From Candidatus Thiopontia autotrophica (GTDB lineage Bacteria > Pseudomonadota > Gammaproteobacteria > GCF-002020875): 64,000 nt of DNA. Positions within the stretch are counted from its first letter, which is position 1. The number at the start of each line of letters is the position of its first letter. Below are positions 8,955-28,156 of the stretch, piece after piece. The notes below the pieces were generated by a model, which saw nothing but the letters and a program-made list of their open reading frames with translations, was not told the DNA's origin and searched no databases. The translations under genes and the position numbers were made by a program. The stretch covers positions 17,018 to 81,017 of the forward strand of contig JACNFK010000024.1 of the NCBI GenBank assembly GCA_014384675.1. The letters are read 5' to 3'.

Positions 8955-8990
8955 GGCCGGCACCTGCATATCAGGTGCCGGTTTTTTTAT
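8955..8990 (+). terminator. Rho-independent terminator after nirS copy 2
   Basis: ccggcacctg / caggtgccgg stem followed by TTTTTTT. Confidence 0.6.
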
Positions 8991-10708: not shown

Positions 10709-10709
10709 G

Positions 10710-11069
10710 ATGATAATTATTAATTACAGGCCTCTCATGCTTCTGCTGGGAGGCCTTTTTTTTGTTTCAGGATGTTCAAATGATCTGCCTGTGCCAAAGG
10801 TGGTTGAGATTGAGATCATTAATTATGGATACCAACCACAAACTGTGACCATTAATCCCGGTGATACAGTACGCTGGATTAACCGTGAGAAGAGACAGTA
10901 CCACTCGGTAAAACTTGATGGTGATGGTGGCGGTGGTTCGGTTAATTCAGAGTATCTCTTTCCTGGGGAGAGCTGGGAGCATACCTTCAGTCAAGAAGGG
11001 GTGTACAACTATATGTGTGGCCCACATTCGGAAATGGTTGGAGCTGTGAAGGTGAAATCACTCATCTAG
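10710..11069 (+). CDS. Type-1 (blue) copper cupredoxin lipoprotein (plastocyanin/pseudoazurin-like)
   Basis: Lipobox FVSGC. H..YMCGPHSEM(V) has the C-x-P-H-x-x-M copper-ligand spacing. Its start lies 2 bp after the nirT stop. Confidence 0.75.
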   Translation: MIIINYRPLMLLLGGLFFVSGCSNDLPVPKVVEIEIINYGYQPQTVTINPGDTVRWINREKRQYHSVKLDGDGGGGSVNSEYLFPGESWEHTFSQEGVYNYMCGPHSEMVGAVKVKSLI

Positions 11070-11744
11070 GGTTTCTCGCATCTTCTCGGCATTGAGGATG
11101 TGGACCTCGTAGCCATGAACCTCAATCATCTTGTTCTTTTTCAGTTTCCCAAGAATGCGAGAGAAGGTCTCTCTCTGAATCGAGAGTCTGGAGGCAATTA
11201 CACTTTTCTGGGTCGGTAACTGAAAGGTGCCTTCATTGTCCTCGGCAGGAATGAAGGTGAGCAGATAGCTTATCAATCTGTGGGTGGCATTATGCAGGCA
11301 TAGGCCATCTATCTCCTGTACATAACTCTGTAGTCGCATACTAAGGTCAGACATGATCGAGAAGGTAGTGTCCGGATCTGAGCGCAAGATATTTTTGTAT
11401 ATCTTACTGTTGAAAACAAAGATCTCTCCACTCTCCAGGAACTGGCTGTTGACAGGGTAGGTGCCACCATCCATAAACATCATCGCCTCAGCAAAGGATT
11501 GGCCAGCCTGGAGAATATTTACCGTCTTCTCACCGCCGTCGAGGGCTAGTAGATAAAGTCGAATGGTGCCGGTTCTTACGATAAAGAAATGGGTTGCTGC
11601 TTCATCTTTAAGGAACAGGGTCTCATTTGGTTTTTTTCTGATTAGTTCGGATGTCTCCAACATCTCTTGCATGGACTCTTTGGTGAGAGAGGCAAAAAGC
11701 GGAGAGCGGCGAAGTTCACGCTCAAAAACAGTGGATAGAGACAT
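11058..11744 (-). CDS. dnr: Crp/Fnr-family regulator of the Dnr/NnrR type (no N-terminal Cys cluster)
   Basis: cNMP-binding fold plus a C-terminal HTH with the E--SR recognition motif (RETFSRIL) expected for TTGAT half-sites. Confidence 0.75.
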   Translation of the reverse strand: MSLSTVFERELRRSPLFASLTKESMQEMLETSELIRKKPNETLFLKDEAATHFFIVRTGTIRLYLLALDGGEKTVNILQAGQSFAEAMMFMDGGTYPVNSQFLESGEIFVFNSKIYKNILRSDPDTTFSIMSDLSMRLQSYVQEIDGLCLHNATHRLISYLLTFIPAEDNEGTFQLPTQKSVIASRLSIQRETFSRILGKLKKNKMIEVHGYEVHILNAEKMRETLDE

Positions 11745-11814: not shown

Positions 11815-11828
11815 TTGATGTAAATCAA
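11815..11828. promoter_or_regulatory. Perfect FNR/Dnr box TTGAT-GTAA-ATCAA between dnr and the hemerythrin gene
   Basis: Exact consensus, 66 bp upstream of the hemerythrin ATG and 78 bp upstream of the dnr ATG. Confidence 0.7.
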
Positions 11829-13565: not shown

Positions 13566-15023
13566 CTAAAAAAGTTTAATAGGATGGGGGTTTGGGGGAT
13601 TTGACAAAATCTCTCTGATCCGGGCAGCCATATCATTGGCTGATATGCCATGAGCCAGTTTTGTTATGAATTCACCATTGGGAGCCATCAGAAAGACCCC
13701 TGAGGAGTGGTCCATAATGTATTGCTCAGGATCTCTCGATTCGTCCACAACCTTCTCATACTTCACATTATATATCCGGGCGACTCGGTCAGTCATGGCC
13801 TGAGTGCCGGTTAGTCCTGTCAGGGCAGGGTGAAAATAGTTAACATAGGTGCTTAGTACATCAGGGGTGTCTCTGGCAGGATCAACCGTAATAAAGTATG
13901 GCTGAATCTGCTCTGCATCATCCCCTATCCTGTTTAGTGCTGAAGAGATGGTGAGTAGTGAGGTTGGGCAGACATCGGGGCAGAAGGTGTATCCAAAGTA
14001 GACCAGGTGAAATTTCCCCAACATATCCTGATCAGTAAAGAGTTTGCCGTGATGATCACGTAGCATGAATTTGCCGCCAATATAGCTGGACGGTGTAGTG
14101 TCTTGGGCGCTGTTTTTAGCCACCTCTTTTGCAGACTCCTCTACAATTGAGTCATCCACATACTTGAGGCACTGTTTGATGGTGACTGTATTATGCTCCA
14201 TCAACTTGAAGTAGTGGTCTTCTCCAGCCTCTATCCTTGATCCAAAACTGTCCAGTAGACCAATATTTAGAGTGGTTCCATCGGTAAGCAGAGATAGTGC
14301 ATCTGGATCAATCTGTTGTTCAGTCAACAGACAGCTGTAGTCACCGCTCTTGAGCCGGGCTCTGTTTTGCAGAAATGAGAGCCCTCTGACTGGTGTCATT
14401 GGGGACTCTGCAACTACCCCTCGAATTTTTAGTGCATATGCCTGTTCAAAGTACTGCAAGGTATCATAGTAGGCCATTCCAATGCCGCTCTTCAATCCAC
14501 GGTATCCATACTCCAGACGACGATCCAGTTCAGCCAGTCTTCTCAATAGATTGCGACGGTTGTTTTCATATAGTGACTTACGTTCTGGATCAAGCTTTGT
14601 CAGCGCCCTGGCAAGTTCATCGGTAATGATGAGAATATTGCGGCTATCAAGCCAGATGAATGGATCACGCCTCTCCTTGTTCCAGCGTGATGTAAGGACC
14701 TTGATCTCCTCATTGTCGAGCAGGGTAAAGAGGGTGGTGTTTGGGCCAAGCAGCTCTAGCTGATTAACCATAAACTGCTCCAGCTCGGGCCCTATCCATA
14801 CAACCATATCTGCATCTCTGAGAGCATGTTGTTTGGATTTTGAGAGAGTTGCCGTGTATGGCGACTGCTGGTTGTCTACAAGTAGCTCGGGTGGGCGTGT
14901 ATCTGCCAGTAGACCAGAGAGAATTGAGTGGATTGGTTTTATGGTAGTGACAACCTTGAGCGGCTCACCACTCCAGGTAGCTGAAGAGAAGATCAGTAGT
15001 GCAAAGATGGAGAGCAGTCTCAA
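13566..15023 (-). CDS. Fusion protein: ZnuA/TroA-like periplasmic metal-binding SBP domain plus a C-terminal SCO1/SenC copper-chaperone domain
   Basis: Signal peptide and ~300 aa of cluster-9 SBP fold (DPFIWLD where ZnuA has DPHxWLD). The C-terminal ~170 aa carry CPDVCP (CxxxC) and a conserved His (MDHSSGVFL) as in Sco proteins. Confidence 0.7.
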   Translation of the reverse strand: MRLLSIFALLIFSSATWSGEPLKVVTTIKPIHSILSGLLADTRPPELLVDNQQSPYTATLSKSKQHALRDADMVVWIGPELEQFMVNQLELLGPNTTLFTLLDNEEIKVLTSRWNKERRDPFIWLDSRNILIITDELARALTKLDPERKSLYENNRRNLLRRLAELDRRLEYGYRGLKSGIGMAYYDTLQYFEQAYALKIRGVVAESPMTPVRGLSFLQNRARLKSGDYSCLLTEQQIDPDALSLLTDGTTLNIGLLDSFGSRIEAGEDHYFKLMEHNTVTIKQCLKYVDDSIVEESAKEVAKNSAQDTTPSSYIGGKFMLRDHHGKLFTDQDMLGKFHLVYFGYTFCPDVCPTSLLTISSALNRIGDDAEQIQPYFITVDPARDTPDVLSTYVNYFHPALTGLTGTQAMTDRVARIYNVKYEKVVDESRDPEQYIMDHSSGVFLMAPNGEFITKLAHGISANDMAARIREILSNPPNPHPIKLF

Positions 15024-15367
15024 AACAGCTTCTCCTGATGGTTCAGAAATCCTGTTTCCAGCTGCTCAATACTGCTATCAACCTGCTGACTGAGCTCTTT
15101 TTCACTGGGACATTGGGTTCCTGATTTTATAATGGCGAGAAAGGATTTGTTGGTTGCCTCGTCAAAAGCTATCCCGATAACCCTGATCTTGGGGACCGTT
15201 GCAACCATGGACCGCTTCATTCTACGGGTCTCATCGATGTATCCACAATTAAGAGCAATACCGTTAAGCTCACCCAGCTGCTTCACTCTCTCAAGTTGTT
15301 GGTCACTGACGGCATAAGCTGGTGCAGTCAGCAGTGCAAGACAAGGTATAAGGTATCTTTTTTTCAT
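15020..15367 (-). CDS. Hypothetical small secreted protein (signal peptide, two Cys)
   Basis: ORF with a signal peptide ending AYA-VS. No recognisable family. Confidence 0.4.
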   Translation of the reverse strand: MKKRYLIPCLALLTAPAYAVSDQQLERVKQLGELNGIALNCGYIDETRRMKRSMVATVPKIRVIGIAFDEATNKSFLAIIKSGTQCPSEKELSQQVDSSIEQLETGFLNHQEKLF

Positions 15368-15439
15368 GGGGGTGAACTATCGGTTGTTGAGGAGTTGTTA
15401 CTTGCAGACAATCTTACCAAATGCGAGACTGATATCGTG

Positions 15440-15453
15440 TTGATCAAGATCAA
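15440..15453. promoter_or_regulatory. Perfect FNR/Dnr box TTGAT-CAAG-ATCAA between the small secreted-protein gene (-) and menA (+)
   Basis: Exact consensus. Centre is 20 bp before the menA ATG and 80 bp before the minus-strand gene start. Confidence 0.6.
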
Positions 15454-15465
15454 AAGTAGATATTC

Positions 15466-16341
15466 ATGAGCTCCCCATGGCTACAGGCTGTACGCCCCAA
15501 AACCCTCTCAATGGCGGTAATTCCCGTTCTTCTGGGGGCTGTGGTAGCCCATACAGAGAGCGCTCTATTTAAACCGCTACTACTCTCCCTTGTCCTTCTG
15601 GCTGCTCTTCTTATCCAGATTGGAACAAATCTATACAATGATGTTGGGGATGCAGAGCGTGGGGCAGATGGGCCAGACCGTCTGGGTCCAAAGCGGATGG
15701 TAGCGGCAGGGGTGTTGAGTGCGGGCAGTGTTCGAAAGGCTGCGATTCTCTCTTTTTTTGGTGCTTTTGTAATAGGTGTGGCCCTGGTTGTGGTTGGTGG
15801 GTTGCCAATCATCTTTATCGGGTTGTCATCAATTGCCGCAGGGATCGCCTATACCGGAGGCAGACTTCCCATTGCCTACACATTTATGGGGGAGCTGTTT
15901 GTCTTTCTCTTCTTTGGGGTTGTTGCAGTTATGGGTACTACCTATCTCATCACTCTGCAGTGGAGCTCTACAGCACTGTTGGTTGGGTCCGTCATAGGGT
16001 TGTTGGCGGCGGCAGTTCTGGTTGTAAATAACTATCGGGATATTGATACTGACCGTGCGGTGGGGAAGAATACCCTGGCAGTCACTCTTGGAGCAGCGCT
16101 CACCAGGGTTCTCTATCTCACGCTTTTATTGACCCCATTTCTGGTGTTGCTGGTGCTCTCTGAACAACTTCAGAAGCCGCTACTGATCTGGGTTATGATG
16201 CCGGCACTGCCGGTTTCACTCTATCTGGGGAGAAAGATATATCTTCTCCCTCACGGTCGAGGGTTAAACCAGCTGTTGGCGCAGACGGCTCAGCTGCAGC
16301 TTCTGTTCGGGATATTGATGATGTTTGGACTTTACCTATGA
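15466..16341 (+). CDS. menA: 1,4-dihydroxy-2-naphthoate octaprenyltransferase (UbiA family)
   Basis: N-terminal WLQAVRPKTL as in MenA, NDVGDAERGADGPDR motif, multiple TM helices. Confidence 0.8.
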   Translation: MSSPWLQAVRPKTLSMAVIPVLLGAVVAHTESALFKPLLLSLVLLAALLIQIGTNLYNDVGDAERGADGPDRLGPKRMVAAGVLSAGSVRKAAILSFFGAFVIGVALVVVGGLPIIFIGLSSIAAGIAYTGGRLPIAYTFMGELFVFLFFGVVAVMGTTYLITLQWSSTALLVGSVIGLLAAAVLVVNNYRDIDTDRAVGKNTLAVTLGAALTRVLYLTLLLTPFLVLLVLSEQLQKPLLIWVMMPALPVSLYLGRKIYLLPHGRGLNQLLAQTAQLQLLFGILMMFGLYL

Positions 16342-17180
16342 AAATAAAAAATATAGCCATTGTAGCCGCTCTTTTACTCTCACCCCTCTCTCTTGCCGAC
16401 ACCCACAGTCAGGAGCATGAGGCATCAGTTCTGCTCCCCCCAACATCCATTGCCCAGTGGTACAAGCCACAAAACAAGCGACAGGTATGGCTTCATACCA
16501 TGTTCCGTCTACGCCGCGCTATGCTGGCAATCCAGGAGTATACGGCTCTGCAGGATGAGAAGCTGCTGGACAAGTGGGGCTCACAATTTATCAAGGACTA
16601 CAGAAGTATCACCGAGATGGTTCCAGAGTGGGGTGACGAGATTGAGCCAGGGTGGATTAATCGACTTGAGCAGGTGATCAGAGATAGAGATTGGGAGGCT
16701 ATGGGTGGGGCACTCAGAAAGGTGGGGATGACCTGTAGCTCATGCCATGATGACTATCGTGCAGTTACTGCGGCACTATACAGAACCCCGGATTTTGAGA
16801 AGGTGATGGTTGAGGATAGTGAGACCATGGAGGATCTATCTTATAAAGAGACAATGAATAACCTTACAACTTCCATGAACCGTTTCAAGATAGCGGTTGA
16901 GGATGGTCGCAAAACTGCTGCAACGGAGTATCTTGAGATGTTCTCAATCAGGGTAATTGATCTGGGTGAGAGCTGTAGCGGATGCCACCGTGATGAACAA
17001 CCTCGTGAACGCATTCTTGGTGAGGAGACAGAGTTCCTGCTGGAGGAGCTATCGGTTCTGCTGGCCGAAAATCCCGAAGGGGTTGGGAGAAAACTGGGTG
17101 AGGTGGGGGTTGCTGTCTGTGCTCGCTGTCACGGTGTTCATCGTACCCTCGCAGATCTGAGAAGAGTGGTTGAGCCATGA
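16338..17180 (+). CDS. Secreted c-type cytochrome with three CXXCH motifs, translationally coupled between menA and ubiE
   Basis: Signal peptide. CSSCH, CSGCH and CARCH motifs. Start overlaps the menA stop (ATGA) and stop overlaps the ubiE start. Confidence 0.65.
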   Translation: MKIKNIAIVAALLLSPLSLADTHSQEHEASVLLPPTSIAQWYKPQNKRQVWLHTMFRLRRAMLAIQEYTALQDEKLLDKWGSQFIKDYRSITEMVPEWGDEIEPGWINRLEQVIRDRDWEAMGGALRKVGMTCSSCHDDYRAVTAALYRTPDFEKVMVEDSETMEDLSYKETMNNLTTSMNRFKIAVEDGRKTAATEYLEMFSIRVIDLGESCSGCHRDEQPRERILGEETEFLLEELSVLLAENPEGVGRKLGEVGVAVCARCHGVHRTLADLRRVVEP

Positions 17181-17905
17181 GTGACAAGGGAGAGCAGCTT
17201 TCGCAGACCTTCGGTTACTCCAGGGTTGATGAGCAGGAGCGTGAAAAGAAGATACGTGCCGTTTTTCAGGCGGTCGCCCCCCGTTATGATCTGATGAACG
17301 ATATGATGAGCTTTGGTATCCACCGCCTCTGGAAGCGTCGTTTGGTAAAGATGGTCAACCCACAGAGCGCTGAGCTGATAGTCGATCTGGCTGGTGGTAC
17401 CGGCGACATTGCCGAGAAGATGGCGGCAGAGGGGCGTACGGTTGTTGTAATAGACCCCAGTGAGGCGATGATGGCAGAGGGGAAGAGGCGAGGTATCAGG
17501 GGAGTCGAGTTCCGGGTGGGAACAGGGGAGTCCATACCCCTGCCTGACAGCTCGGTTGATCGTCTTACCATCTCCTTTGGTATCCGCAATATGACAAATA
17601 TGGGGCAAGCTCTGAGTGAGATCAATCGTGTGTTAAAGCCTGGTGGAAAAATGTACTGCCTTGAGTTCTCCAGACCCCACTGGTTGATCAAGCCTTTTTA
17701 TGATCTCCACTCCTTTTATCTGATCCCACGTCTGGGAGCATGGGTGGCCAAGGCGCCAATCGCCTACAATTATCTGGTGGAGTCAATTCGCCGCTTCCCC
17801 GATCAGGAGGAGATGAAGAGGATGATGGAGCAGGCAGGATTCACCAATGTCAGTTACAGAAACCTCACCTTTGGAATTGCCGCCATTCATACTGGTGAGA
17901 AATGA
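17177..17905 (+). CDS. ubiE: Demethylmenaquinone/ubiquinone C-methyltransferase
   Basis: UbiE/MenG signature (DLMNDMMSFG, VDLAGGTGD), 242 aa. Confidence 0.85.
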   Translation: MSDKGEQLSQTFGYSRVDEQEREKKIRAVFQAVAPRYDLMNDMMSFGIHRLWKRRLVKMVNPQSAELIVDLAGGTGDIAEKMAAEGRTVVVIDPSEAMMAEGKRRGIRGVEFRVGTGESIPLPDSSVDRLTISFGIRNMTNMGQALSEINRVLKPGGKMYCLEFSRPHWLIKPFYDLHSFYLIPRLGAWVAKAPIAYNYLVESIRRFPDQEEMKRMMEQAGFTNVSYRNLTFGIAAIHTGEK

Positions 17906-18888
17906 GTGTTGATGAAGTAGATATCACCCTGGAGACCAGTGGCACCGAGGGTGTTGCAAAACAAGTCAGCTTCTCTGTAGAGAGATTGCGAGCCAGTGCC
18001 CGCATGGGGCGAGCGTTGGAGGATCTTCAGTCTGGTGACTGCTGGCTTAACTGTCTGCCACTGAACCATGTTGGTGGTCTCTCTATCAAGTATCGCTGTG
18101 AAGAGGCAGGAGCCGCCATGCTGCTTCATGAGGGCTTTGACCCGGAAAAAATTTATGGTGATCTAAAGCGGCACTTTGTTACTCATATTTCACTGGTTCC
18201 GGTAATGCTCTCGAAATTGCTGGACTATTTTGGAGATAAGCCCGCCCCTACATATCTAAAGACGGTACTGATCGGTGGAGACCATCTGCCAAAGTCACTG
18301 GCCCAGCGTGCTGTAGAGAGGGGGTGGCCCATTGTGGTCTCCTATGGGCTGACAGAGACTGCATCAAGGATCACCATGTTGCGACTCTCTGGTGAAAATA
18401 TTGCGGCATGGGATGATAGTGATGTAGGTCCTCCTCTGCCTGGAGTCTCTGTAACCATAGGGGGGCAGGGTGAGATCAGGATAAGGAGTGATCAGCTGCT
18501 GGGTGATCATGAGGTTGTAACCGCTGACCATGGGGCAGTTGATGACAGCGGTCACCTTCATGTTTATGGAAGGCTGGACTGTCGGATTATCTCGGGAGGC
18601 GTGACTATTGATCCTGTAACCATAGAGCAGCTGATGATCTCTGCACCAGGGGTAAAAGATGTGGGTGTAGGCTCTGTTCCTGACAAGGAGTGGGGTGAGC
18701 GTATTGTTGCAGTTATAGCTGGTGATATGAATCAGGACATTGTGGCTGGCTGGATGAGAGAGAATATTCCATCTGGTCTGCGCCCACGAGAACTGCTGTT
18801 GGTCTCCGAGTTAAGACGCAATCGTCTGGGCAAGCTGGATCGAGAGTGGTTAAAAAATCAGGCAGAGAGTGCGTTTAGCATACCCTGA
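17902..18888 (+). CDS. menE: Short-form o-succinylbenzoate-CoA ligase (AMP-binding superfamily)
   Basis: TSGTEG P-loop-like motif, YGLTET, and a length and context typical of short MenE. Confidence 0.65.
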   Translation: MSVDEVDITLETSGTEGVAKQVSFSVERLRASARMGRALEDLQSGDCWLNCLPLNHVGGLSIKYRCEEAGAAMLLHEGFDPEKIYGDLKRHFVTHISLVPVMLSKLLDYFGDKPAPTYLKTVLIGGDHLPKSLAQRAVERGWPIVVSYGLTETASRITMLRLSGENIAAWDDSDVGPPLPGVSVTIGGQGEIRIRSDQLLGDHEVVTADHGAVDDSGHLHVYGRLDCRIISGGVTIDPVTIEQLMISAPGVKDVGVGSVPDKEWGERIVAVIAGDMNQDIVAGWMRENIPSGLRPRELLLVSELRRNRLGKLDREWLKNQAESAFSIP

Positions 18889-20228
18889 ATCTTTAGTCCG
18901 ATCTCTGCTATCTCGTCTTCAGCAACTGACCCCTTAACAATGCCGGCACCGGCGTAGAGAATAGCTTTTTCATCTTCAACCATTGCGCAGCGTAGTAGCA
19001 CATGGATCTCTCCATCTCCATCAGGATCAATCCAGCCGGCACCACCACAATACCCGCCACGGTAGCTGTTGTTGTGTTCAGTTAGCCACTGGAGAGCCGC
19101 TGTTCTTGGGGTTCCACAGATTGCAGGGCTCTGGTGAAGGGCCTCAATCAGCTCAAATATGGAGGTACTGTCTCTTCCGTCTTCTGTTTTCAGCCTCCCC
19201 TTGATCGCGGTCAGTAGATGTTGAATATTCTCAAGCTTGTGAATGGTTGGCGTGGCTGGTATATCTACGGTCTCACAGAGTGGTAGCAGTGCACTGCCGA
19301 CAGCATCAACCACCAGCTGGTGTTCATGACGTAGCTTGGGATTCTTGAGCAGGAGCTGTTCCTGCATACTCTCCTCTTCTTCACTGCTGCCCCGGGGAAG
19401 GGTGCCTGCCAGGGCGTCAGACTCCACGTCGGCTCCTCGCTTGGAGAAGAGGCGTTCAGGAGGTGCGGCAATAAAATGTCTCCCTTCTATGGAGAACGAG
19501 AACTGCGCGGTTGATGGGCTGCTCCGTTCCAGTTTTTTCAGGGTTCGCTCTGTGCCTATCGGATTGGAGAAGTGAAACCGTTGCTGCTCTCCTATTACCA
19601 GCTTCTCGATTGTGTTGGAGTAAATGGTCTCAATAGCATCCCTGAAAATCTGATCTGCCGAATCAAGGCTGTTGTCCGGAGTAATGGTTGATGGGGCGCC
19701 TGGAGGAGGGTGGTTATCTAGAATTTCTCTCAGCTGGTTGATATCCTCCTGCCAGTTTTCCAGGATCTCTTCCTCTGCTATCCCCTCTCTCTGGTGTGAA
19801 AAAATGACACTCTGTCTCCCGCTCTGGTTGATGAGCTGAACGCGTGGCAGCATAAGTAGGGTGTTGGGGAACCCGTGCCACTCATTCTGCATTGGATCAT
19901 CCTCATGGAATGCGTAATGAAACAGAGTTCTTGGTGAGGCTCCGGTCTCTTCCGGGTCAAAAACAGCCCATGAGTTTGTGAGTTGCAGAAACTGTTCCCT
20001 GGCCTCGGTAAAGCGTTCTCTCCCTCTCAGCTCTCTCTGCCATCCGCTCTGCAGTGCGAGCAGCCTTACCCCTTCACGTGGGCTCCTCCAGTAGATACCA
20101 TTTTTTAGGGGTGGTGGGGCAGTGAATGGGCGCTCATTGAATGGCAGAATGATGCTGATAACCTGATCAATTTGGCTGTCACTGTTATTATAAACTAGAT
20201 TAAGTTCATGTTTTAACTTATTGATCAT
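18858..20228 (-). CDS. menF: Isochorismate synthase (chorismate-binding family)
   Basis: C-terminal chorismate-utilising motifs (GGAGWIDPDGDGE, YAGAGIV). Context in the men cluster. Confidence 0.8.
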   Translation of the reverse strand: MINKLKHELNLVYNNSDSQIDQVISIILPFNERPFTAPPPLKNGIYWRSPREGVRLLALQSGWQRELRGRERFTEAREQFLQLTNSWAVFDPEETGASPRTLFHYAFHEDDPMQNEWHGFPNTLLMLPRVQLINQSGRQSVIFSHQREGIAEEEILENWQEDINQLREILDNHPPPGAPSTITPDNSLDSADQIFRDAIETIYSNTIEKLVIGEQQRFHFSNPIGTERTLKKLERSSPSTAQFSFSIEGRHFIAAPPERLFSKRGADVESDALAGTLPRGSSEEEESMQEQLLLKNPKLRHEHQLVVDAVGSALLPLCETVDIPATPTIHKLENIQHLLTAIKGRLKTEDGRDSTSIFELIEALHQSPAICGTPRTAALQWLTEHNNSYRGGYCGGAGWIDPDGDGEIHVLLRCAMVEDEKAILYAGAGIVKGSVAEDEIAEIGLKIQGMLNALSA

Positions 20229-20255
20229 TGGGTGTTGTCTAAGTAAAAACCTGGA

Positions 20256-21077
20256 CTAGGTTCTTCGCTTGTGCTTTGTGAAGTCTGGCGGACGTTTTTC
20301 ATTAAAGGCATTACGGCCTTCCTGTCCTTCGTCTGACATGTAAAAGAGGGCAGTGGCGTTACCTGCCAGCTCCTGAATTCCGGCAAGCCCATCGGTATCT
20401 GCATTAAATCCAGCCTTGAGAAGACGTAGTGCTGTTGGACTGTGCTGCAACATCTCCTGGCACCAACGGATGCTCTCCTCCTCCAGCTTGTCAGCGGGGA
20501 CAACACGGTTGACTAGCCCCATATCCAGTGCCTCCCCGGCACTGTATTGACGACAGAGAAACCAGATCTCTTTTGCCTTTTTCATCCCTACGGTGCGTGC
20601 CAACAGACCCGCTCCAAGACCTGCATCAAAACTTCCGACCTTGGGGCCGGTCTGTCCAAAGATGGCACTGTCGGATGCGATGGAGAGATCACAGATCAGA
20701 TGGAGGACATGGCCACCACCTATGGCGTATCCATTTACCATCGCCACTACCGGCTTTGGCAAGGTACGTATCTGACGCTGCAGGTCGAGTACATTGAGAT
20801 GCTCTCCACCACTCTCATCCTTGTAGCCGCTAGCGCCACGAATCTTCTGGTCACCACCTGAGCAGAATGCCTTCTCTCCTGCACCGGTCAGGATAATGGC
20901 TCCTATCTCACTGTCCATATGTGCGCGGTGAAATGCATCTATCATCTCCTCTACAGTCTCCGGGCGGAAGGCGTTATGTACCTGGGGACGGTTGATGGTG
21001 ATTTTGGCAATCCCCTCTGCACTATCGTAGAGGATATCCCGGTAGTTGGAATCGATATCTCTTATCCACTCAATCAA
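20256..21077 (-). CDS. menB: 1,4-dihydroxy-2-naphthoyl-CoA synthase (crotonase fold)
   Basis: Crotonase signatures ([26 protein letters not shown]), 273 aa. Confidence 0.9.
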
Positions 21078-22903
21078 TGTAGTGACTCCCAGTATTGGTG
21101 ATGGTTACGGTTGCTGATATTGCGATCAATGGTCAATTCTATCAGTTTGGGATGGGGCTGTTGGAGCACCTCATCCAGGTATAGTGCCAGGCCATCTCTA
21201 TCTGTTACCTCTCTGTAGGGGATATCATAGAGGGCGGCAACTCTCTTGAACTCTACCGTAGTTGGGGTTAGCCAAAGTGACTCAAATTCAGGTAGCTGGG
21301 CTGGGGGAAGATGGCTGAAGATGTTGCCGCCACCATTATTGATCACAATAATTGTCAGATCCATCTCCAGCTCTTTTGCCAGATAGAGGGCGTTCAGATT
21401 GTGAAAGAGGGTAAGGTCACCTAGTAGTGCAACAACAGGGGTGTCGGGGTCTGTAACTGCACGAATGCCACAGACGGTGGCAAGGTTGCCATCAATCCCG
21501 CTGGCCCCGCGATTTGCAAACAGTTTTAGAGGCTCCTCTCTTTGAGTCATCCAACCATCGATATCTCTGATCACCATGGAGTTTCCACTAAACAGAATGG
21601 TGCCGCCAGGCAGTTGTCGGTTTAGCGTCCTGATTACCTGATCTTCACTCAGGTCGTCAGGGTTGCTTCTCCATTCTGCCGCTAACCGCTCCTTCTCTTT
21701 TAGTGTATGAAGATGGCTATTACCAGCCTGTGGCTGTGGGCGTCCAGAGGGACACCCGCAAGGCGAAGCGGGGAGATTGTCTGTAGGGTTGGGGTCTGCA
21801 TACTGTAGTAACTGTTGGCAGAAGGTTGCAGGGGAGGTAGAGATTTTTGTATTGGATAGTGATAGTGGATCGCTCCAGACAGTTTTGTGGTGCACGGTGA
21901 TGTAGCGTTTTGGCAGGCTCTCTTGTAGCAGAGTAGCTACCGCTTTCGATAGCGGAAAACGACCAAACTGGATAACCCACTCTGGACGACATAACCTGCG
22001 GTTCTTCTCATTACGGAGGATTCCGTCGTAGTGGGTAAAGAACAGTTGATTGTCGTCATCTCCCCAGCGCAGGTTGGAGAGTGGGTCTGCAAAAACTGGA
22101 GCCCCAAGACTCTCGGCAAGCTGGTTCAGTACTGTATTGAAGCCCTTGGGATAATGTGACTCTCCACACAAGATAACCCCTGGTTTGCCACTGACCTCCT
22201 GGCATATCTCCTGGTAGTCAATAACAGGGATGGTGTTATCAGCATGGTCCCTGGCGGCATATTGCAGGCCACTATTGTGCCACTTGATCTGCTTGCTGTT
22301 GCGGGCAAGAAGTGGTTCTCTAAACGGGATATTCAGGTGGACGGGCCCCGGTGCCGGATTCTCCATTGACTCAATCATCTGTGGAACCAGCTCTGTCAGC
22401 TGAGTAACTGGATCATCTATCTCATCCGGGGGAGGGGTGGTGTATCTGGCACTAACCTGTTCCCCAAAGATATTGTTCTGGGCAATGGTCTGGTTGGCCC
22501 CACAGTTGTGAAGTTCTGGTGGGCGATCTGCAGAGAGTAGCAGAAGAGGGGTGGATGAGTGGTATGCCTCAATAACGGCAGGGAGCCAGTTTGCAACCGC
22601 AGTTCCAGAGGTGCAGATCAGAGCTGTTGGGACTTCTCTCTTTTTGCTCTGTCCAAGTGCCATGAAGGCTGCATCACGTTCATCTACGATGACCCAATAT
22701 TTTGTATCGGGGTGACGAGCTACAGCAAGAGCCAGAGGAGTTGATCTGGAACCGGGTGAGATAACAAAGTGGGTTATGCCGCCATCCACCAGAGCCTGTA
22801 TCAGGGTGGCAGACCACTGCAGGTTTATAGCACCTATATCACTCATATCTCTGCAAAATATCTCTGAGAGCATCAGGGAGGGGTATCTTCTCTCCACTAT
22901 CAA
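21074..22903 (-). CDS. menD: SEPHCHC synthase (ThDP-dependent); likely true start near 22846 ([11 protein letters not shown])
   Basis: N-terminus resembles MenD ([21 protein letters not shown]), ThDP fold. Overlaps the menB start. Confidence 0.85.
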
Positions 22904-23261
22904 TAGAGGTGGTTACATGGGTAGTTGTAACTGTGGCCTTGAGTTGTGGCTTGCCGCCATCATCAAAACCATGCGTCAGGGTTTTCAGGGTAAATGAGTG
23001 GTTGCCAATGGCTGTCACCTGAATAGTAAGGGTAAGGGTTTCACCAAGTTTTATCGGTTGGTGATAATCCGCATCGGCATGGACCAGAGGGATGGCCTCT
23101 CCTCTCTGTTGAATAATGTTGTGAAGAGGCAGGTTGTTGCTGAATAGCATCTCCTCATAGGCATTGTGGGTCAGCCTGAAGAGCTCTCCATAGAAGAGCA
23201 GGCCGGCGCCATCAATCTCGTGAAGTTGAACTCTATGGGGGTAGGAGAAAAAATTATTCAT
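22839..23261 (-). CDS. Hotdog-fold (4HBT/YbgC-like) acyl-CoA thioesterase, probably DHNA-CoA hydrolase
   Basis: 140 aa with the 4HBT-type N-terminal motif (YPHRVQLHEIDGAGLLFYG). Sits between menC and menD. Confidence 0.6.
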   Translation of the reverse strand: MNNFFSYPHRVQLHEIDGAGLLFYGELFRLTHNAYEEMLFSNNLPLHNIIQQRGEAIPLVHADADYHQPIKLGETLTLTIQVTAIGNHSFTLKTLTHGFDDGGKPQLKATVTTTHVTTSIDSGEKIPLPDALRDILQRYE

Positions 23262-24379
23262 GGCAGGGTCAGTATCCCGTTTTTTATCGGTAGAGCCAAC
23301 ATAAGATCTTCTGCTAGCAGTGATGAGGTTGCAAGCCCGTGAGCATGTCTCTGTTCCGGGTCAACAGCTCCAGCACAGTATGCTGCCGAGATTATGCCCA
23401 CGCTACTCTCCAGTGCTGAGGTGATGATGACATCAACCCCTCTCTCTTTAAACTGAGTGGCAATCTTGAAAGTTGTATATGGTCCTCCCATCAGAGCAGG
23501 CTTAAGGACAACACGCTGGAGCTGTTCATTTTTTAGTAATGTCTCAACCCCAAAGTCAGACACTGATTCATCCAGTGCCAGCGGGAAGGGTGTCTCTCTC
23601 TGTAGTTTATTAATAGTCTCAAGGGTGGGGTTTTTAAGTGGCTCTTCCAGAGACTCTATATTTATGGGCATGGGTAGCGCTTGAATGGCAGAGATAAATT
23701 GAGATGCTTCCGTTATGCTCCATGCCTGGTTTGCATCAAGCCTTATTTCAGTGTGCTGTGGCAGTGTTGCAGCTAAGCTGTACAGTTGTGCAACCTCTTC
23801 ATCAATAGATGACAGGCCAACCTTTACCTTTATAACTGATTCACCATCAACTGGTTCTGTTGCTTTGGCAAGAGTACCGGCAGGGTGGTTGACCCTGATT
23901 TTATTGGTGGCATTGGGGGATATCCAGCTGCCTGGGGTCAGGCCGCATCTTTTCGCCAGTATTGTAATCAGGGCAGACTCTACCCCACAACAGGCTGCAG
24001 GAGAGGTGTTGCGTAGATCTGGAAGTCTGGCCAGCAGGTCATCGACAGAGATGTTGTCTGCCTCTTCCTTTAATAGCTCCAGAGTTTTGCGGCACTGTTC
24101 CAGTGATTCGCTACCCATCTCTGGTAGAGGTGCCGCATCTCCCAGCCCTGCTACGCTATCCTGCTCACTTATCTCTACAAGAAAACCTGCACGATTGTTG
24201 ATGGTTCCATGGCTAGTTACCCATGGATGCCTGAGTGGCAAGTGATAGGGGAGGATGAAGAGTGAATTAATCATCATCCAGGATGGATAGATAGGCCAGC
24301 AGGTTGTGAATATCTTCCTCGCTATACTCGTTGAAGAGGGATTCATTTGTCTCCTCATTGTCATGAACCCTGTTGCCAT
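23258..24379 (-). CDS. menC: o-Succinylbenzoate synthase (enolase superfamily); likely start near 24277 (MMINSLFILPY)
   Basis: Enolase-superfamily catalytic residues (KVKVG, DANQAW, LEEP, ALDES..D). Context in the men cluster. Confidence 0.75.
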   Translation of the reverse strand: MATGFMTMRRQMNPSSTSIARKIFTTCWPIYPSWMMINSLFILPYHLPLRHPWVTSHGTINNRAGFLVEISEQDSVAGLGDAAPLPEMGSESLEQCRKTLELLKEEADNISVDDLLARLPDLRNTSPAACCGVESALITILAKRCGLTPGSWISPNATNKIRVNHPAGTLAKATEPVDGESVIKVKVGLSSIDEEVAQLYSLAATLPQHTEIRLDANQAWSITEASQFISAIQALPMPINIESLEEPLKNPTLETINKLQRETPFPLALDESVSDFGVETLLKNEQLQRVVLKPALMGGPYTTFKIATQFKERGVDVIITSALESSVGIISAAYCAGAVDPEQRHAHGLATSSLLAEDLMLALPIKNGILTLP

Positions 24380-24935
24380 CCCTGTAGGCGAAGATCTGTT
24401 TCAATAGATATGCACTATATTGTCCAGTTAGTAGAGGAATACTCTTTTTAGGTTTCCCCTCCCCATGACGGCCATGACAGCTTGCACACTCTTGGTTGTA
24501 GAGCTTTTCTCCTGCATTCACATCACCTTCGAGCCTGGGTATGGTGAGTAGCTTCTTACTTAGTAGCAGACGTTCATAGGCATCAAAGTTCTCTTCATCT
24601 ATTGGCGGAAGTTTTGAATAGAGTTGTATGGTCGGGAGGTATGCAGATACATCCAGCAGATCCTCCTCCGGCAGCTCTCGCTCCTTGGTGTATGGAATCA
24701 TGGGGTGGTTGAGACGTTCACGACTTTTGAAACGACGTAGCTCCTCTGCAATGTATTTTTCCGGCAGTCCTGCTAGACGGGGATACTCTCCCTCCTTGCC
24801 CCCTTCGGCATATTCACCATGACAGCCTGCACATACCTCGTTGATCTCCTCACCAATCTCAAGATTTGCAGCAGATGAGATACCTGATACAACCACAATG
24901 GCCATTGCTCTGAATGTCTGTTTGATTCCTTCCAT
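24267..24935 (-). CDS. Dihaem cytochrome c (c4-like), the last gene after nosY
   Basis: Signal peptide plus CAGCHGE and CASCHGRHG motifs. Confidence 0.75.
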   Translation of the reverse strand: MEGIKQTFRAMAIVVVSGISSAANLEIGEEINEVCAGCHGEYAEGGKEGEYPRLAGLPEKYIAEELRRFKSRERLNHPMIPYTKERELPEEDLLDVSAYLPTIQLYSKLPPIDEENFDAYERLLLSKKLLTIPRLEGDVNAGEKLYNQECASCHGRHGEGKPKKSIPLLTGQYSAYLLKQIFAYRDGNRVHDNEETNESLFNEYSEEDIHNLLAYLSILDDD

Positions 24936-24961: not shown

Positions 24962-25789
24962 CTAAAGTTGATCACCACGGCGGAACAGCATATATCCGAC
25001 AGAGGCAGCGACTGTACCTAGTACAAGAGGGTATGCCATAGCCCATACCAGATACCAGAACTCGCCAAAATGGTCGAGAATGAGATAGGCTGAGGGGCCG
25101 AGCAGAACAAGCTGAGGATCAAACAGCAGCATCGATGCGGTACGAAAAACCTGTAGTGGGTTGCTCAGTGCGATGGCAACAATAGTATCCGAGGGGATCT
25201 GTTGCTGAATCATTATGCCAAGCAGAATAAGATCCAGAAACAGTAGCAGGAAGAGCCAGATCATGAAGGCGCTACCCTGAGCCACATCTGGTGACCTGGC
25301 AATGGTGGAGATTAGCATCCCAATACCAAGGAAGCACCACGATAGAGAGAAGAGCATGGCTGTGTAGAAGAGGAAGATGGACCATGGAATCTCCATATCC
25401 TGAATAACTCCCCATGCAATTGCCCCTGCCATGGCAAGGAAAACAGGAAGGAAGACTACGGTAAAGCGACCAAACATCTTTCCCCAGAACCATGAGGAGA
25501 GAGATATGGGTAGTGAGAGCAGGTACTCAAAGATTCCTGCATCACGATCACCGGCGACAGAGCGTACTGTGGTTATCAGAATAAATATCGGGAGAATAGC
25601 CATTGATAGCTGAATGTATGTAATCAGGAGGCGGGAGAGTCCGACAAACCCCATTATTCTGGATTCAGTCAATCCAAAGGCAAATAGCAGGGCAATAATT
25701 CCCCCAAAGACAATTGAATATATAAGGAACCACTTGCTACGCAGTGACTCGGAGATATCTGCCTTTGCTGTCATCAAGGTGTGCTTCAT
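24962..25789 (-). CDS. nosY: ABC-2 type permease NosY
   Basis: Six TM helices, ~275 aa, overlaps the nosL stop by 4 bp. Context with nosD and nosF. Confidence 0.7.
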   Translation of the reverse strand: MKHTLMTAKADISESLRSKWFLIYSIVFGGIIALLFAFGLTESRIMGFVGLSRLLITYIQLSMAILPIFILITTVRSVAGDRDAGIFEYLLSLPISLSSWFWGKMFGRFTVVFLPVFLAMAGAIAWGVIQDMEIPWSIFLFYTAMLFSLSWCFLGIGMLISTIARSPDVAQGSAFMIWLFLLLFLDLILLGIMIQQQIPSDTIVAIALSNPLQVFRTASMLLFDPQLVLLGPSAYLILDHFGEFWYLVWAMAYPLVLGTVAASVGYMLFRRGDQL

Positions 25790-26415
25790 GGTTTGCTACC
25801 ATCCTGTGGCTGTTTGGGGCGATTGGCCTCTTCGGCACGGTGGGCAAGACGAGCCTTTAGTGAGGCATAGTAGCTCTCCTCCTGACTGAAGACAGAACTT
25901 CTCATCTCCAGGAAGCCGACTGAATCCTGAGTGGCTTTGGGTTGCGCACTAAAGCCATAATTCATCGGGGTATGGGTAACTTTTACATATTGTGCCTCTC
26001 TGGCGTTTAGCCACCCTCCATCTTGATAGTTGTTTACCCATATCTCGGTTTTTGGGTCATCTCTCCATGGCTGCTCTTCGAGCCAGAGTAGAGCACAGCC
26101 TATATCATCAAAAGTATATGGCTTATGGTGTTTGCCACCACGAATCTGGGCAGAGTGGTTGCGATCACTAAGTGCCATCATGCAACGATCACAATTGTCG
26201 CGATCCCAGGTGACATCAACCGGGCCTGTTGCGGGATCACCGCTACAACCAGCAAGAGAGAGCAATAGGGCCAGAGATGCCATCTTCAGTGAGTTTATGG
26301 TTGCCCATCTCACTGTCTGCTCTCCTCGATATTGACTGTTGCCAGCAAGGCGGCATAGCGTGAAAGTACTCCCAGAAAACGGAGGCGATCTGGTCCTGGA
26401 ATAGTTCCAGTCCAC
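25786..26415 (-). CDS. nosL: Copper-binding lipoprotein NosL (likely start MASLALLLSLAGCSG near 26285)
   Basis: Lipobox LAGC. CDRCMM..DRNHSAQI resembles the NosL CxxCxM copper motif. Confidence 0.65.
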   Translation of the reverse strand: MDWNYSRTRSPPFSGSTFTLCRLAGNSQYRGEQTVRWATINSLKMASLALLLSLAGCSGDPATGPVDVTWDRDNCDRCMMALSDRNHSAQIRGGKHHKPYTFDDIGCALLWLEEQPWRDDPKTEIWVNNYQDGGWLNAREAQYVKVTHTPMNYGFSAQPKATQDSVGFLEMRSSVFSQEESYYASLKARLAHRAEEANRPKQPQDGSKP

Positions 26416-27299
26416 TCTGTTTCAGAGTCCTGGTTGCTGAATCCCCATGAGCTGATGGCGGCAGAAAATGCTGGTTCGATACGAGTGGTCTTGATGGTGC
26501 AGTTGAGCAGGCTGGATAGCTCAACACTATCATCAACTCGATCATCCAGAATTACCTTGCCTCGATCCAGCTCAATCACCCGGTTTACCAGTGATGCAAC
26601 CTCATCAAGTCGATGGCTGGAGATCAGCATTGCGGTCTCTTTTCTCTTCTTCTCAAGCATGGAGAAGAGGATATGTCTGGCCTCAGGATCAAGGTTGGCA
26701 GCCGGCTCATCCATTATGAGTAGATTGGTAGGGCGCCCAAGCGCTATGGCAATCAGCAGTTTCTGTTTCTGCCCGCCAGAGAGTTTTACAAATGGCCTTT
26801 TTTTGATGGTATCCAGTCCGAGCCCCAACTGTTCAGCTACTGATGCCATCTCTTCTGTGGAGCACCCACAGACACTGGCAGAGAAATCGAGAAGTTGTTG
26901 AACCGGCATCTTTAGTGGTGGAGGGAGTTGGGGTACAAATCCTATCCGTGAGAGAACCTCTTTTCTCTCCTTGCGAGGGCTCTTGCCATCAAGGGTGATC
27001 TCTCCATCGCAGCTGTATTCACCGAGCAGACAGCGGATCAGAGTTGTCTTGCCGGCACCATTGGAGCCGATAAGGGCAACCCTGTCACCAGTCTTGATCT
27101 CCAGATCAAGCTCCTGCAGAACTGTGGTGCGTCTGAAGCTCTTTGATACCCCCTGCAAGATGATCATTTTTTCTTGCTCAGCCCTTTGAAGTGGTAGCTT
27201 AGAGAGTCTGTTGGACAGACATCTACACACATGCCGCACCTGGTGCAGTCGGGACCTATGCCCACATTCACATCTGGTGCACGTCCCTTGATTGTCCAC
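26310..27299 (-). CDS. nosF: ABC ATPase NosF (likely start MIILQGV near 27167)
   Basis: Walker A GSNGAGKTT, ABC signature LSGGQKQK, Walker B LLIMDEP. Confidence 0.8.
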   Translation of the reverse strand: MDNQGTCTRCECGHRSRLHQVRHVCRCLSNRLSKLPLQRAEQEKMIILQGVSKSFRRTTVLQELDLEIKTGDRVALIGSNGAGKTTLIRCLLGEYSCDGEITLDGKSPRKERKEVLSRIGFVPQLPPPLKMPVQQLLDFSASVCGCSTEEMASVAEQLGLGLDTIKKRPFVKLSGGQKQKLLIAIALGRPTNLLIMDEPAANLDPEARHILFSMLEKKRKETAMLISSHRLDEVASLVNRVIELDRGKVILDDRVDDSVELSSLLNCTIKTTRIEPAFSAAISSWGFSNQDSETEWTGTIPGPDRLRFLGVLSRYAALLATVNIEESRQ

Positions 27300-28156
27300 T
27301 CCAGCACATGTGGAACCAGACAGACCTTGCGGCAGTCTCCTTCATGGTGGCAGGCGTCAACATTGTAGTTGATCTTCAATGGGGAGAAGATACCAACAAA
27401 GCCATAGGTAAGGCCGATAGGGCAGGCATAGCGACACCAGGCTCTGCGCGAGTAGAGGATCTCTACAGTAAGCAGAAACAGTACCCAGAGCAGCGCAACT
27501 GTAGGGCCATAAATCAGTGCTCGACTCAGAATTCCCGTGGGGGAGATCGCCTCAAAAATCGTGTAACCGGTACCAAGTGCCAGGGCAATAAAGATGATAT
27601 ATAGGTAGAGGCGTGCCTTACGGTTAAAGAGATGGTTTTTGATTATCTTCTTTTCAACCAGTTTAATATGGATCATCTCGGCAAATTCCGAGAGCAGATG
27701 GTATGGGCAGACCCAGGAGCAGAAGGTGCGTCCGCCCAATAATAGCCAGAGGATAAGGATAGTGACAGTTCCAATAAGCAGGTTGATTACAACTGTCTTG
27801 AAGGCGAGCATCACCTGCAGAGCTGAGTTTAGGTCAGCCATATGGAATCCAAGAAAACGGGATGCAGTTAGTGCGCCCTCCAATACCTGGATATCCAGCG
27901 TATAGGAGACGACAAAAAGGAGGTTAATCAGGATTAGAGTGGTCCAGCGTCTTTTGCGCCACTTTTTGTTGTGAGTTTCACGATATATCTGGTGCTCTTC
28001 ACGTGCCTTTACCTTATCTATATCGCCATTTTTTCTCTTGCGCTCATGGAGCTCTTGCGCCGCGGCAGAAATTTTTTCAGGAGGAGTTTTGGCGGGGCTT
28101 TTCCCCATCATTATGTTGACGCAATACTTGCCGATCTTCATGCGACATCCTCCCAC
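27164..28156 (-). CDS. nosH: NosH, a NapH-like membrane ferredoxin
   Basis: CSWVCP and CPIGL motifs, two C-terminal 4Fe-4S motifs, paralogous to the ORF at 1894. Inside the nos cluster. Confidence 0.75.
   Translation of the reverse strand: MGGCRMKIGKYCVNIMMGKSPAKTPPEKISAAAQELHERKRKNGDIDKVKAREEHQIYRETHNKKWRKRRWTTLILINLLFVVSYTLDIQVLEGALTASRFLGFHMADLNSALQVMLAFKTVVINLLIGTVTILILWLLLGGRTFCSWVCPYHLLSEFAEMIHIKLVEKKIIKNHLFNRKARLYLYIIFIALALGTGYTIFEAISPTGILSRALIYGPTVALLWVLFLLTVEILYSRRAWCRYACPIGLTYGFVGIFSPLKINYNVDACHHEGDCRKVCLVPHVLEWTIKGRAPDVNVGIGPDCTRCGMCVDVCPTDSLSYHFKGLSKKK

Follow-up and report, generated by a model that had tools for sequence, protein, structure and literature searches.

The 64-kb stretch of DNA analysed here, called the window at its full length, comes from Candidatus Thiopontia autotrophica and carries a block of menaquinone (MK) biosynthesis genes inside a cluster for the reduction of nitrous oxide (N2O). 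Positions 15466-24274 encode MenA, UbiE/MenG, MenE, MenF, MenB, MenD, a Slr0204-type thioesterase for 1,4-dihydroxy-2-naphthoyl-CoA (DHNA-CoA; DHNA for the free acid) and MenC. Genes were assigned from a listing of open reading frames (ORFs) combined with NCBIfam and Pfam scans at curated cut-offs. An earlier note, made from the sequence alone, had described a near-complete classical Men pathway of eight genes within 9 kb, on the strands given below, and the NCBIfam and Pfam scans confirm each of these genes. The block and its cytochrome c genes are as follows.

15466-16341, plus strand: menA, DHNA polyprenyltransferase (NF004751 278 bits, cut-off 264; Pfam UbiA; exact match MBC8519513)
16338-17180, plus strand: secreted three-haem cytochrome c, 280 aa (PF01322, cytochrome c'-like fold family; CXXCH at residues 133, 213 and 261)
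17177-17905, plus strand: ubiE/menG, demethylmenaquinone C-methyltransferase (TIGR01934 260 bits, cut-off 158; PF01209)
17902-18888, plus strand: menE, short o-succinylbenzoate-CoA ligase, 328 aa (TIGR01923 199.5 bits, cut-off 330)
18858-20228, minus strand: menF, isochorismate synthase (TIGR00543 266 bits, cut-off 225)
20256-21077, minus strand: menB, DHNA-CoA synthase (NF005637 480 bits, cut-off 380; TIGR01929 432 bits)
21074-22873, minus strand: menD, synthase of 2-succinyl-5-enolpyruvyl-6-hydroxy-3-cyclohexene-1-carboxylate (SEPHCHC) (TIGR00173 423 bits, cut-off 244)
22839-23261, minus strand: DHNA-CoA thioesterase, hotdog fold, Slr0204 type (PF13279 (4HBT_2)/PF03061)
23258-24274, minus strand: menC, o-succinylbenzoate (OSB) synthase, 338 aa (TIGR01927 173 bits, cut-off 130; MenC_N and MR_MLE_C)
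24267-24935, minus strand: dihaem cytochrome c between nosY and menC (PF00034 twice; CXXCH at residues 35 and 150)

Chance cannot account for eight pathway genes lying within 8.8 kb. The family assignments cover eight of the nine pathway steps, and the curated NCBIfam cut-offs were passed by seven of the eight men genes, MenE being the one that falls short. All nine ORFs of the block are intact, and identical proteins occur in many assemblies. Among solved structures, the thioesterase is best matched by Slr0204, the DHNA-CoA hydrolase of Synechocystis (4K00, E=3e-18, full length), which supports the function that the earlier note had assigned to it. This gene is conserved within the men clusters of eight of the loci compared below (L003, L004, L008, L020, L084-L086 and L089). 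The menD product has 599 aa in our gene call and 590 aa in the NCBI version, and for menC the sequence makes a start at 24274 more likely than one at 24379. The three-haem cytochrome gene, absent from the earlier note, sits between menA and ubiE and overlaps each of them by 4 nt. At the other end of the block, the menC ATG overlaps the stop codon of the upstream dihaem cytochrome c gene (ATGATGATTAA).

The proteins are identical to GenBank entries MBC8519513-19 of Ca. Thiopontia autotrophica (exact protein match), which are already named in GenBank as the respective Men enzymes. The same contig was found in many assemblies, with menA indexed in 38 blocks of the genome collection. Ca. Thiopontia autotrophica represents the BS-GSO2 clade of the Black Sea redoxcline and is described as a sulfur oxidiser with reverse dissimilatory sulfite reductase (rDsr), the Calvin-Benson-Bassham cycle and a complete denitrification pathway (PMC8359478). 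The remainder of the window consists of ordinary proteobacterial housekeeping genes (thrS-infC-pheST, proS, ilv/leu). The exact protein matches bear out the gammaproteobacterial origin proposed in the earlier note. An Rfam scan of the window returned three tRNAs and no other RNA family, and the 64-kb window contains no ubi genes.

The men block is surrounded by a clade II nos cluster, of which the following genes were recognised.

33046-35415, minus strand, probable start 35343: nosZ, clade II, Sec-dependent (TIGR04246 862 bits, cut-off 625)
32567-32887, minus strand: monohaem cytochrome c downstream of nosZ (translation, CXXCH)
31748-32476, minus strand: dihaem cytochrome c downstream of nosZ (translation, CXXCH)
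30411-31622, minus strand: nosB-like membrane protein by position, 403 aa, hydrophobic, between the cytochromes and nosD
28959-30380 (approximate), minus strand: nosD (TIGR04247 378 bits)
28138-28962 (approximate), minus strand: nosG (NapG models NF007012/TIGR00397 cover the N-terminal half; twin-arginine RREFMR)
27164-28156 (approximate), minus strand: nosH (NapH/MauN family TIGR02163 242 bits, cut-off 213)
26310-27167 (approximate), minus strand: nosF, ABC ATPase
25786-26313 (approximate), minus strand: nosL (gene position and a weak Pfam NosL match on the homologues in L002 and L086)
24962-25789 (approximate), minus strand: nosY, ABC-2 permease
15020-15367, minus strand: orf115, small secreted protein without a family match, nos-associated
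13566-15023, minus strand: ZnuA-SCO1/SenC fusion (Pfam ZnuA and SCO1-SenC; NCBIfam ZnuA)

The minus-strand order is thus nosZ, monohaem and dihaem cytochrome c, nosB-like, nosD-G-H-F-L-Y, dihaem cytochrome c and menC. NosZ reached only 367 bits with the twin-arginine-type model TIGR04244, and its signal is of the Sec type, without twin arginine. A haem c domain on NosZ is ruled out, as the protein has no CXXCH motif. The 403-aa protein at the nosB position had no Pfam or NCBIfam match; it is conserved at that position in L002, L084, L085, L087 and most metagenomic nos loci, and the monohaem and dihaem cytochrome pair also occurs in L084, L085 and L087.

The 8.9-kb men block lies between the nosY-cytochrome c end of this array and orf115/ZnuA-SCO1. 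As orf115 and ZnuA-SCO1 directly follow nosY in 12 of the 53 nos loci evaluated below, the men block of the window splits a nos accessory string. It is embedded in the nos cluster, beyond mere adjacency. The earlier note had placed the men genes next to NapGH- and NosGH-type modules. Both G/H pairs are indeed present (nosGH at 27164-28962, a napGH-like pair at 1087-2787), and the description has to be amended in that the men genes are embedded in the nos cluster, not just next to it. The orf115 and ZnuA-SCO1/SenC fusion genes also follow nosY in many clade II loci (L094-L138). They have the appearance of nos accessory genes not recognised so far, perhaps serving copper delivery.

We then compared the locus with other genomes, in which loci (numbered L) were annotated by tblastn using the window proteins only. 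A scan of the genome collection with the single MenD protein gave no relatives, and the MenD relatives described here are those among the matches listed for a scan with a 21-sequence alignment. Among these, MenD homologues with 38-78% identity were found in uncultured relatives, Sulfuricella, Thiohalomonas, Sedimenticola, Thiohalobacter, Thiohalocapsa, Rhodocyclaceae, Dechloromonas and Azonexus; the next nearest among the matches listed were from Bacillaceae and Chloroflexota, at about 35% identity. In the following loci the men genes stand in or near a nos cluster.

L002 and L006, Sulfuricella denitrificans skB26 and a Sulfuricella metagenome-assembled genome (MAG): nosD-G-H-F-L-Y-ubiE-menE-menF-menD, then napGH/napD and nirS
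L003 and L086, Thiohalomonas denitrificans and a 1.75-Mb contig: nosH-F-L-Y-orf-ubiE-menE, converging on cytc-menF-D-B-A-C-crp-thioesterase
L084 and L085, metagenomic contigs with MenD 78% and 53% identical: the Thiopontia order nosY-cytc-menC-thioesterase-menD-menB-menF
L032, MAG BP7.bin16: nosY-menA, ubiE on the opposite strand, then menF-D-B-C
L055, 510-kb contig labelled Ca. Sulfotelmatobacter: nosZ-cytc-nosDGHFLY-menF-D-B-A-C, then menE and ubiE on the opposite strand
L087, genome of a Ca. Sedimenticola symbiont: menA and the three-haem cytochrome 3 kb from a clade II nosZ

Coming from the nos side, we scanned metagenomes with a NosY alignment and obtained 80 loci at 66-81% identity, of which 53 could be evaluated because they extend at least 1.5 kb downstream of nosY. 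These 53 loci carry the following genes there.

men genes: 11 of 53 loci
orf115 / ZnuA-SCO1 without men, with or without cytochrome c: 12 of 53 loci
cytochrome c only: 6 of 53 loci
nirF / nirS: 7 of 53 loci
other or unrecognised genes: 17 of 53 loci

With an assumed genome size of 3-4 Mb, chance would be expected to place unlinked men genes behind nosY in well under 1% of cases. The ubiE of the window is 57-73% identical to the copies located after nosY in other loci. At least six men-nos gene orders exist, and the men genes that abut nosY vary between the menC side, ubiE-menE, menA and menF. As the GC content of the linked loci ranges from 41 to 65% on top of these different orders, the linkage appears to have been maintained or re-formed repeatedly rather than to stem from one recent transfer, although the linked cases are not independent events. 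In rough neighbour-joining trees of MenD, MenB and MenF, built without bootstrap or enterobacterial sequences, the beta- and gammaproteobacterial carriers and L055 formed one clade in which the classes are intermixed, and the Men proteins of the carriers stood apart from those of Firmicutes, Chloroflexota and others. These data show that the men-nos linkage recurs across beta- and gammaproteobacterial lineages.

The cytochromes recur as well. In many loci, nosY or men genes have beside them a homologue of the dihaem cytochrome at 24267-24935 (47-66% identity). The three-haem cytochrome adjoins menA in L087 (10001-10837) and L088 (10001-10852), and in L099 (at about 14227) it stands beside a ubiE-menE-cytochrome c run that follows nosY. 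With its length of about 280 aa and its weak cytochrome c' Pfam match, this family is widespread in gammaproteobacterial sulfur oxidisers and symbionts.

Some of the compared loci have peculiarities of their own. The proteins of L055 (DATLJS010000020.1) are 60-70% identical to NosZ, NosY, MenB and UbiE of the window, and the contig is binned as an acidobacterium; its block reflects either a binning error or the passage of the entire module between phyla. In L084, the closest relative among the matches listed (MenD 78%), menF is followed at 13949-17990 by dsrC and narI-narJ-narH, not by menE-ubiE-cytochrome-menA. Given these neighbours, the plus-strand half of the men genes is located elsewhere in that genome. 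A Dechloromonas MAG (L010) and an Azonexus MAG (L027) have a MenD homologue of 37-38% identity at 10001-11626. Even when thresholds were relaxed, no second men gene could be recognised within ±10 kb of it, which sets these two apart from the other proteobacterial loci.

The gene spacing in the window suggests how the men genes may be transcribed. On the minus strand, menC and the thioesterase gene overlap by 4 nt, the thioesterase gene and menD by about 35 nt, and menD and menB by 4 nt; the other gaps between men genes are at most 28 nt. The last gene of this array, menF, converges on the end of menE with a 31-nt overlap. A simple terminator scan found a strong hairpin with a T-run at 33018-32990, just after the nosZ stop codon, a second strong hairpin after the dihaem cytochrome gene at 31748, and no strong terminator between 31700 and 18858. 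The genes menC, thioesterase, menD, menB and menF are probably part of one transcript with nosB-like through nosY and the dihaem cytochrome c gene.

Possible regulatory sites are concentrated in the same region. The FNR/DNR-type palindrome TTGAT-N4-ATCAA has 12 matches in the window against 3.5 expected, a number reached in none of 100 shuffles. All four perfect palindromes lie in denitrification intergenic regions (5252-5265, 5346-5359, 11815-11828 and 15440-15453): two upstream of nirS, one between the regulator and hemerythrin genes and one between orf115 and menA, the last being listed here.

15440-15453, no strand: perfect FNR/DNR-type palindrome TTGATCAAGATCAA in the 98-bp orf115-menA spacer

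A site with one mismatch is found at 35470-35483, 61 nt upstream of the annotated nosZ start, and a further FNR/DNR-type site of the nos region at 32543-32556. The distribution of these sites over nir, regulator/hemerythrin, orf115-menA and nos suggests a single regulon. The centre of the 15440 palindrome lies 79.5 nt from the orf115 ATG and 19.5 nt from the menA ATG. The latter distance does not suit an activator site of menA, and we assign the box to orf115.

Two features of the men block bear on whether the pathway is complete, the first being the missing menH. A hidden Markov model (HMM) was built from the MenH proteins that 25 Bacillaceae loci encode between menD and menB; it matched no ORF of at least 80 aa in the 64-kb window, in line with the earlier claim that menH is the only pathway gene missing from the cluster. 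No alpha/beta hydrolase occurs among the approximately 60 window proteins scanned, and the 4-nt overlap of menD and menB leaves no space for menH between them. In 21 related loci the model matched nothing except one alpha/beta hydrolase in L022, with the limit that a distant MenH could escape this HMM. By the same scan, none of the men clusters of this proteobacterial clade contains menH, which makes its absence a feature of the clade and not a recent loss. SEPHCHC is known to lose pyruvate spontaneously, a step that MenH merely accelerates.

The second feature is the short MenE, which begins 10 residues before the P-loop TSGTEGVAK, with nothing upstream of it. MenE covers only positions 111-442 of TIGR01923, and the lack of profile positions 1-110 explains why it falls below the cut-off. 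Its alignment with Bacillus subtilis MenE (5X8F) spans residues 142-479 of the latter; the window MenE lacks the equivalents of residues 1-141 and retains the P-loop lysine and the A8 and A10 motifs. No N-terminal MenE remnant was found in any frame, and a stop codon lies directly upstream of menE. A frameshifted or split gene is ruled out by this stop codon, by ubiE filling the upstream space and by the lack of another MenE-like frame. The same menA-cytochrome-ubiE-menE operon occurs in L088, where MenE has 326 aa, 59% identity and an identical start point; a 64-aa ORF that precedes menE in L088 does not resemble MenE N-termini. In a search of representative proteins the best MenE match, P0241, has 330 aa and 53% identity, and further proteins have 331-371 aa. 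As the short MenE is kept as an open frame in relatives, it is not a one-off lesion or pseudogene. We treat it as a conserved short variant and putative OSB-CoA ligase.

The part of the window beyond orf115 and ZnuA-SCO1 contains further denitrification genes, three of which encode possible quinol-oxidising proteins.

1087-1875, plus strand: napG-like (Fer4 domains, Fer4_7/Fer4_5 pair; 31% identity to NosG)
1894-2787, plus strand: napH-like (Fer4 domains, Fer4_7/Fer4_5 pair; 29% identity to NosH)
8975-10708, plus strand: fusion of a NapC/NirT tetrahaem quinol dehydrogenase with an ethylbenzene-dehydrogenase-like (EB_dh) haem domain, 577 aa, five CXXCH (TIGR02161 263 bits; PF03264 and PF09459), downstream of the nirS pair

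The NirT-EB_dh fusion is conserved in L001 and L088 and corresponds to two adjacent separate genes in Sulfuricella (L002). At 5487-8944, two nirS genes (cytochrome cd1) stand in tandem, with 1547 nt of 100% identical DNA and 99.6% protein identity over 518 aa. The copies differ only at their 5' ends, and L088 also has two nirS genes. The pair of the window either arose through duplication or gene conversion very recently or is an effect of assembly. Genes for a cupredoxin, a Crp/Fnr regulator, a hemerythrin and a dihaem cytochrome were also found on this side. Directly upstream of the napGH-like pair, 610-1002 seemingly encodes only the C-terminal two-haem half of a NapC/NirT-type cytochrome and may be a gene remnant; window positions 1-600 contain no long ORF.

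With moderate confidence, we read the region as a working, O2-independent classical MK pathway inside a clade II nos cluster, with MK donating electrons to the quinol dehydrogenases of periplasmic denitrification. Judged by homology, MenF would convert chorismate to isochorismate and MenD isochorismate to SEPHCHC. Spontaneous pyruvate elimination or an unlinked hydrolase would yield 2-succinyl-6-hydroxy-2,4-cyclohexadiene-1-carboxylate (SHCHC), from which MenC would form OSB. The short MenE would then activate OSB to OSB-CoA, MenB would convert this to DHNA-CoA and the Slr0204-type thioesterase would release DHNA. Finally, MenA would convert DHNA to demethylmenaquinone, and UbiE/MenG would convert this to MK. 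Menaquinol would be oxidised by NosGH, with electrons passing through the c-type cytochromes of the cluster to NosZ. MK probably also serves the NirT-EB_dh fusion, which would supply NirS, and the NapGH-like pair. Menaquinol is proposed as the donor to NosGH because the men genes overlap with and are embedded in the nos cluster, because this linkage recurs, and by analogy to the quinol specificity of NapH in Wolinella. NapH of Wolinella is reported to oxidise menaquinol specifically, with NosGH described as its analogue (PMC3475470), and NosGH has been regarded as a quinol-oxidising module like NapGH (PMC3475470, PMC11539149). The identities and packing of the genes and the recurrence of the linkage are shown by the sequences, whereas MK production, men-nos co-transcription and the quinol specificity of NosGH in Ca. 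Thiopontia are inferred. The earlier note had suggested a dedicated low-potential quinone pool for anaerobic respiration. This suggestion gains weight from the nos embedding and its recurrence in Sulfuricella, Thiohalomonas and other loci. Its premise that Gammaproteobacteria are mostly ubiquinone-dependent is oversimplified, as about 20% of Pseudomonadota species have Men (PMC11707229).

Several observations weigh against this interpretation. In 42 of the 53 evaluable nos loci there are no adjacent men genes, so that the linkage is frequent and not obligatory, and the compared loci are not phylogenetically independent. In two other Sedimenticola genomes, Thiohalobacter and a Rhodocyclaceae MAG, nos genes were not found within 10 kb of the men clusters. 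In the window itself, the plus-strand half (menA, cytochrome c, ubiE and menE) is not co-directional with nos, and the nearest FNR box is ill-placed for menA. Flux through the pathway is putative, given that menH is absent and that MenE lacks about 140 N-terminal residues of characterised MenE enzymes. Moreover, E. coli NapGH is assigned to ubiquinol oxidation, which means that G/H modules are not intrinsically MK-specific.

The main rival to a nos-directed role is that MK is the general, perhaps the only, quinone of an organism living at a sulfidic redoxcline, where it would also serve rDsr/DsrMKJOP, sulfide:quinone oxidoreductase (SQR) and Apr-Qmo, the nos linkage being due to shared FNR/DNR regulation. 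We consider this possible but unlikely. On this view MK would be used because its synthesis needs no O2 and its potential matches low-potential sulfur couples. Ca. Thiopontia is described as a rDsr sulfur oxidiser with complete denitrification (PMC8359478). Some Gammaproteobacteria have Men but no UbiB, and Men correlates with low-O2 lifestyles (PMC11707229). The dsrC and narHJI genes beside menF in L084, the FNR-type boxes across the entire nir-men-nos region and the men clusters without nearby nos in Sedimenticola, Thiohalobacter and Rhodocyclaceae point the same way. However, the neighbour that recurs beside men across gene orders is nos, usually nosY, and not dsr, sqr or nar, and the start/stop overlap with the nos-side cytochrome gene suggests more than loose co-regulation.

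Two other explanations are less likely still. The men and nos genes may have been joined once on a transferable segment and kept together without functional coupling. This we regard as improbable, even though men loci are known to spread as single loci by horizontal gene transfer (PMC11707229), the Men proteins of the carriers form one clade with beta- and gammaproteobacteria intermixed in our rough trees, a nos-men block lies on a contig labelled as an acidobacterium (L055) and an IS110 transposase adjoins menA in L087. A single joining event sits poorly with at least six men-nos orders in which different men genes abut nosY. The GC range of 41-65% indicates old, ameliorated arrangements whose linkage was kept or regained through rearrangement. 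In the window, no integrase, transposase or tRNA boundary flanks the block, whose GC content of 0.48-0.52 matches the rest of the window without a break. Least probable is that the cluster is decaying and no longer makes MK. The window does lack a MenH-like ORF, and MenE, without the equivalents of B. subtilis residues 1-141, scores 199.5 instead of 330 bits. Against decay stand the nine intact ORFs with identical proteins across many assemblies, the P-loop lysine and A8 and A10 motifs of a short MenE whose open frame is conserved at 59% and 53% identity, the existence of other MenE relatives of about 330-370 aa, and the clade-wide absence of menH.

If a nos-directed MK pathway is the correct reading, it has consequences beyond this genome. 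Organisms with clade II NosZ are regarded as major sinks of N2O, a greenhouse gas, and outside Campylobacterota electrons may reach this NosZ through either NosGH or a bc1 complex. The linkage predicts that MK is made under denitrifying or N2O-respiring conditions and is needed for NosGH-dependent N2O reduction, a prediction that is directly testable in the cultured carriers Sulfuricella denitrificans skB26, Thiohalomonas denitrificans and Sedimenticola. It would also explain in functional terms why some scattered Pseudomonadota acquired Men horizontally, and suggests men genes as a metagenomic marker of the type of nos electron transport. A bolder generalisation, which we put forward tentatively and think somewhat more likely to fail than to hold, is that NosGH-type clade II nos clusters in ubiquinone-using beta- and gammaproteobacteria are self-sufficient N2O modules that carry, or strictly co-occur with, their own quinone synthesis, NosGH being driven by menaquinol only. 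N2O consumption would then have MK synthesis as a hidden, genetically linked precondition in a sizeable set of environmental N2O sinks, comprising Thiopontia/BS-GSO2, Sulfuricella, Sedimenticola, Thiohalomonas and relatives of Dechloromonas/Accumulibacter, and a nos-men module could travel between lineages as a unit. If the link is one of co-regulation only, the locus is an ordinary annotated MK cluster in an uncultured Black Sea sulfur oxidiser.

As for what was known before, the gene annotations and horizontally transferred Men loci have been described, and the men cluster alone is ordinary and already annotated; the recurrent men-nos linkage appears to be new, and in it and in the embedding in nos lies the interest of the locus. 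Our literature search, whose coverage left out many subscription papers, found no paper describing men genes inside or beside nos clusters. Dechloromonas aromatica and Ca. Accumulibacter carry clade II nosZ. In an older survey they were the only betaproteobacteria with both MK and UbiC (PMC3914697). Scattered, horizontally acquired single-locus Men clusters in Pseudomonadota have been assigned to Men clades I-III (ISME J 2024, PMC11707229). The Thiopontia locus resembles these in that its host, a proteobacterium, belongs to none of the enteric, Vibrio and Pasteurella groups and has the men cluster at a single locus, and its Men proteins group with those of scattered beta- and gammaproteobacteria, consistent with repeated acquisition and linkage. 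It differs in that the men genes are interleaved with a respiratory cluster and include a cytochrome c gene, a Slr0204-type thioesterase and a short MenE, and that paper mentions neither nos, N2O, Sulfuricella nor Thiohalomonas.

The nos part is most similar to the clade II cluster of the Wolinella succinogenes type, with which it shares a Sec-dependent NosZ, a protein at the nosB position, the order nosD-G-H-F-L-Y, several c-type cytochromes and a NosGH module. Wolinella has MK only, made by the futalosine route from genes unlinked to nos, whereas Thiopontia belongs to a class that ancestrally uses ubiquinone, and its cluster itself carries the quinone pathway. In addition, a C-terminal haem c domain is missing from the window NosZ, the position of the cytochrome genes is between nosZ and nosB-like rather than between nosG and nosH, and orf115 and the ZnuA-SCO1 fusion are additional recurrent members. 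Compared with E. coli, the same chemistry is predicted by homology for MenF, MenD, MenC, MenE, MenB, MenA and UbiE. However, E. coli has menFDHBCE with unlinked menA, ubiE and menI/ydiI, whereas the window has no menH and holds menA and ubiE inside the cluster. The thioesterase is of the cyanobacterial Slr0204 hotdog type and not YdiI, and MenE is about 120-140 residues shorter. In the window, the E. coli-specific equivalog models remain far below their cut-offs (e.g., MenF NF011588, 113 bits against 488).

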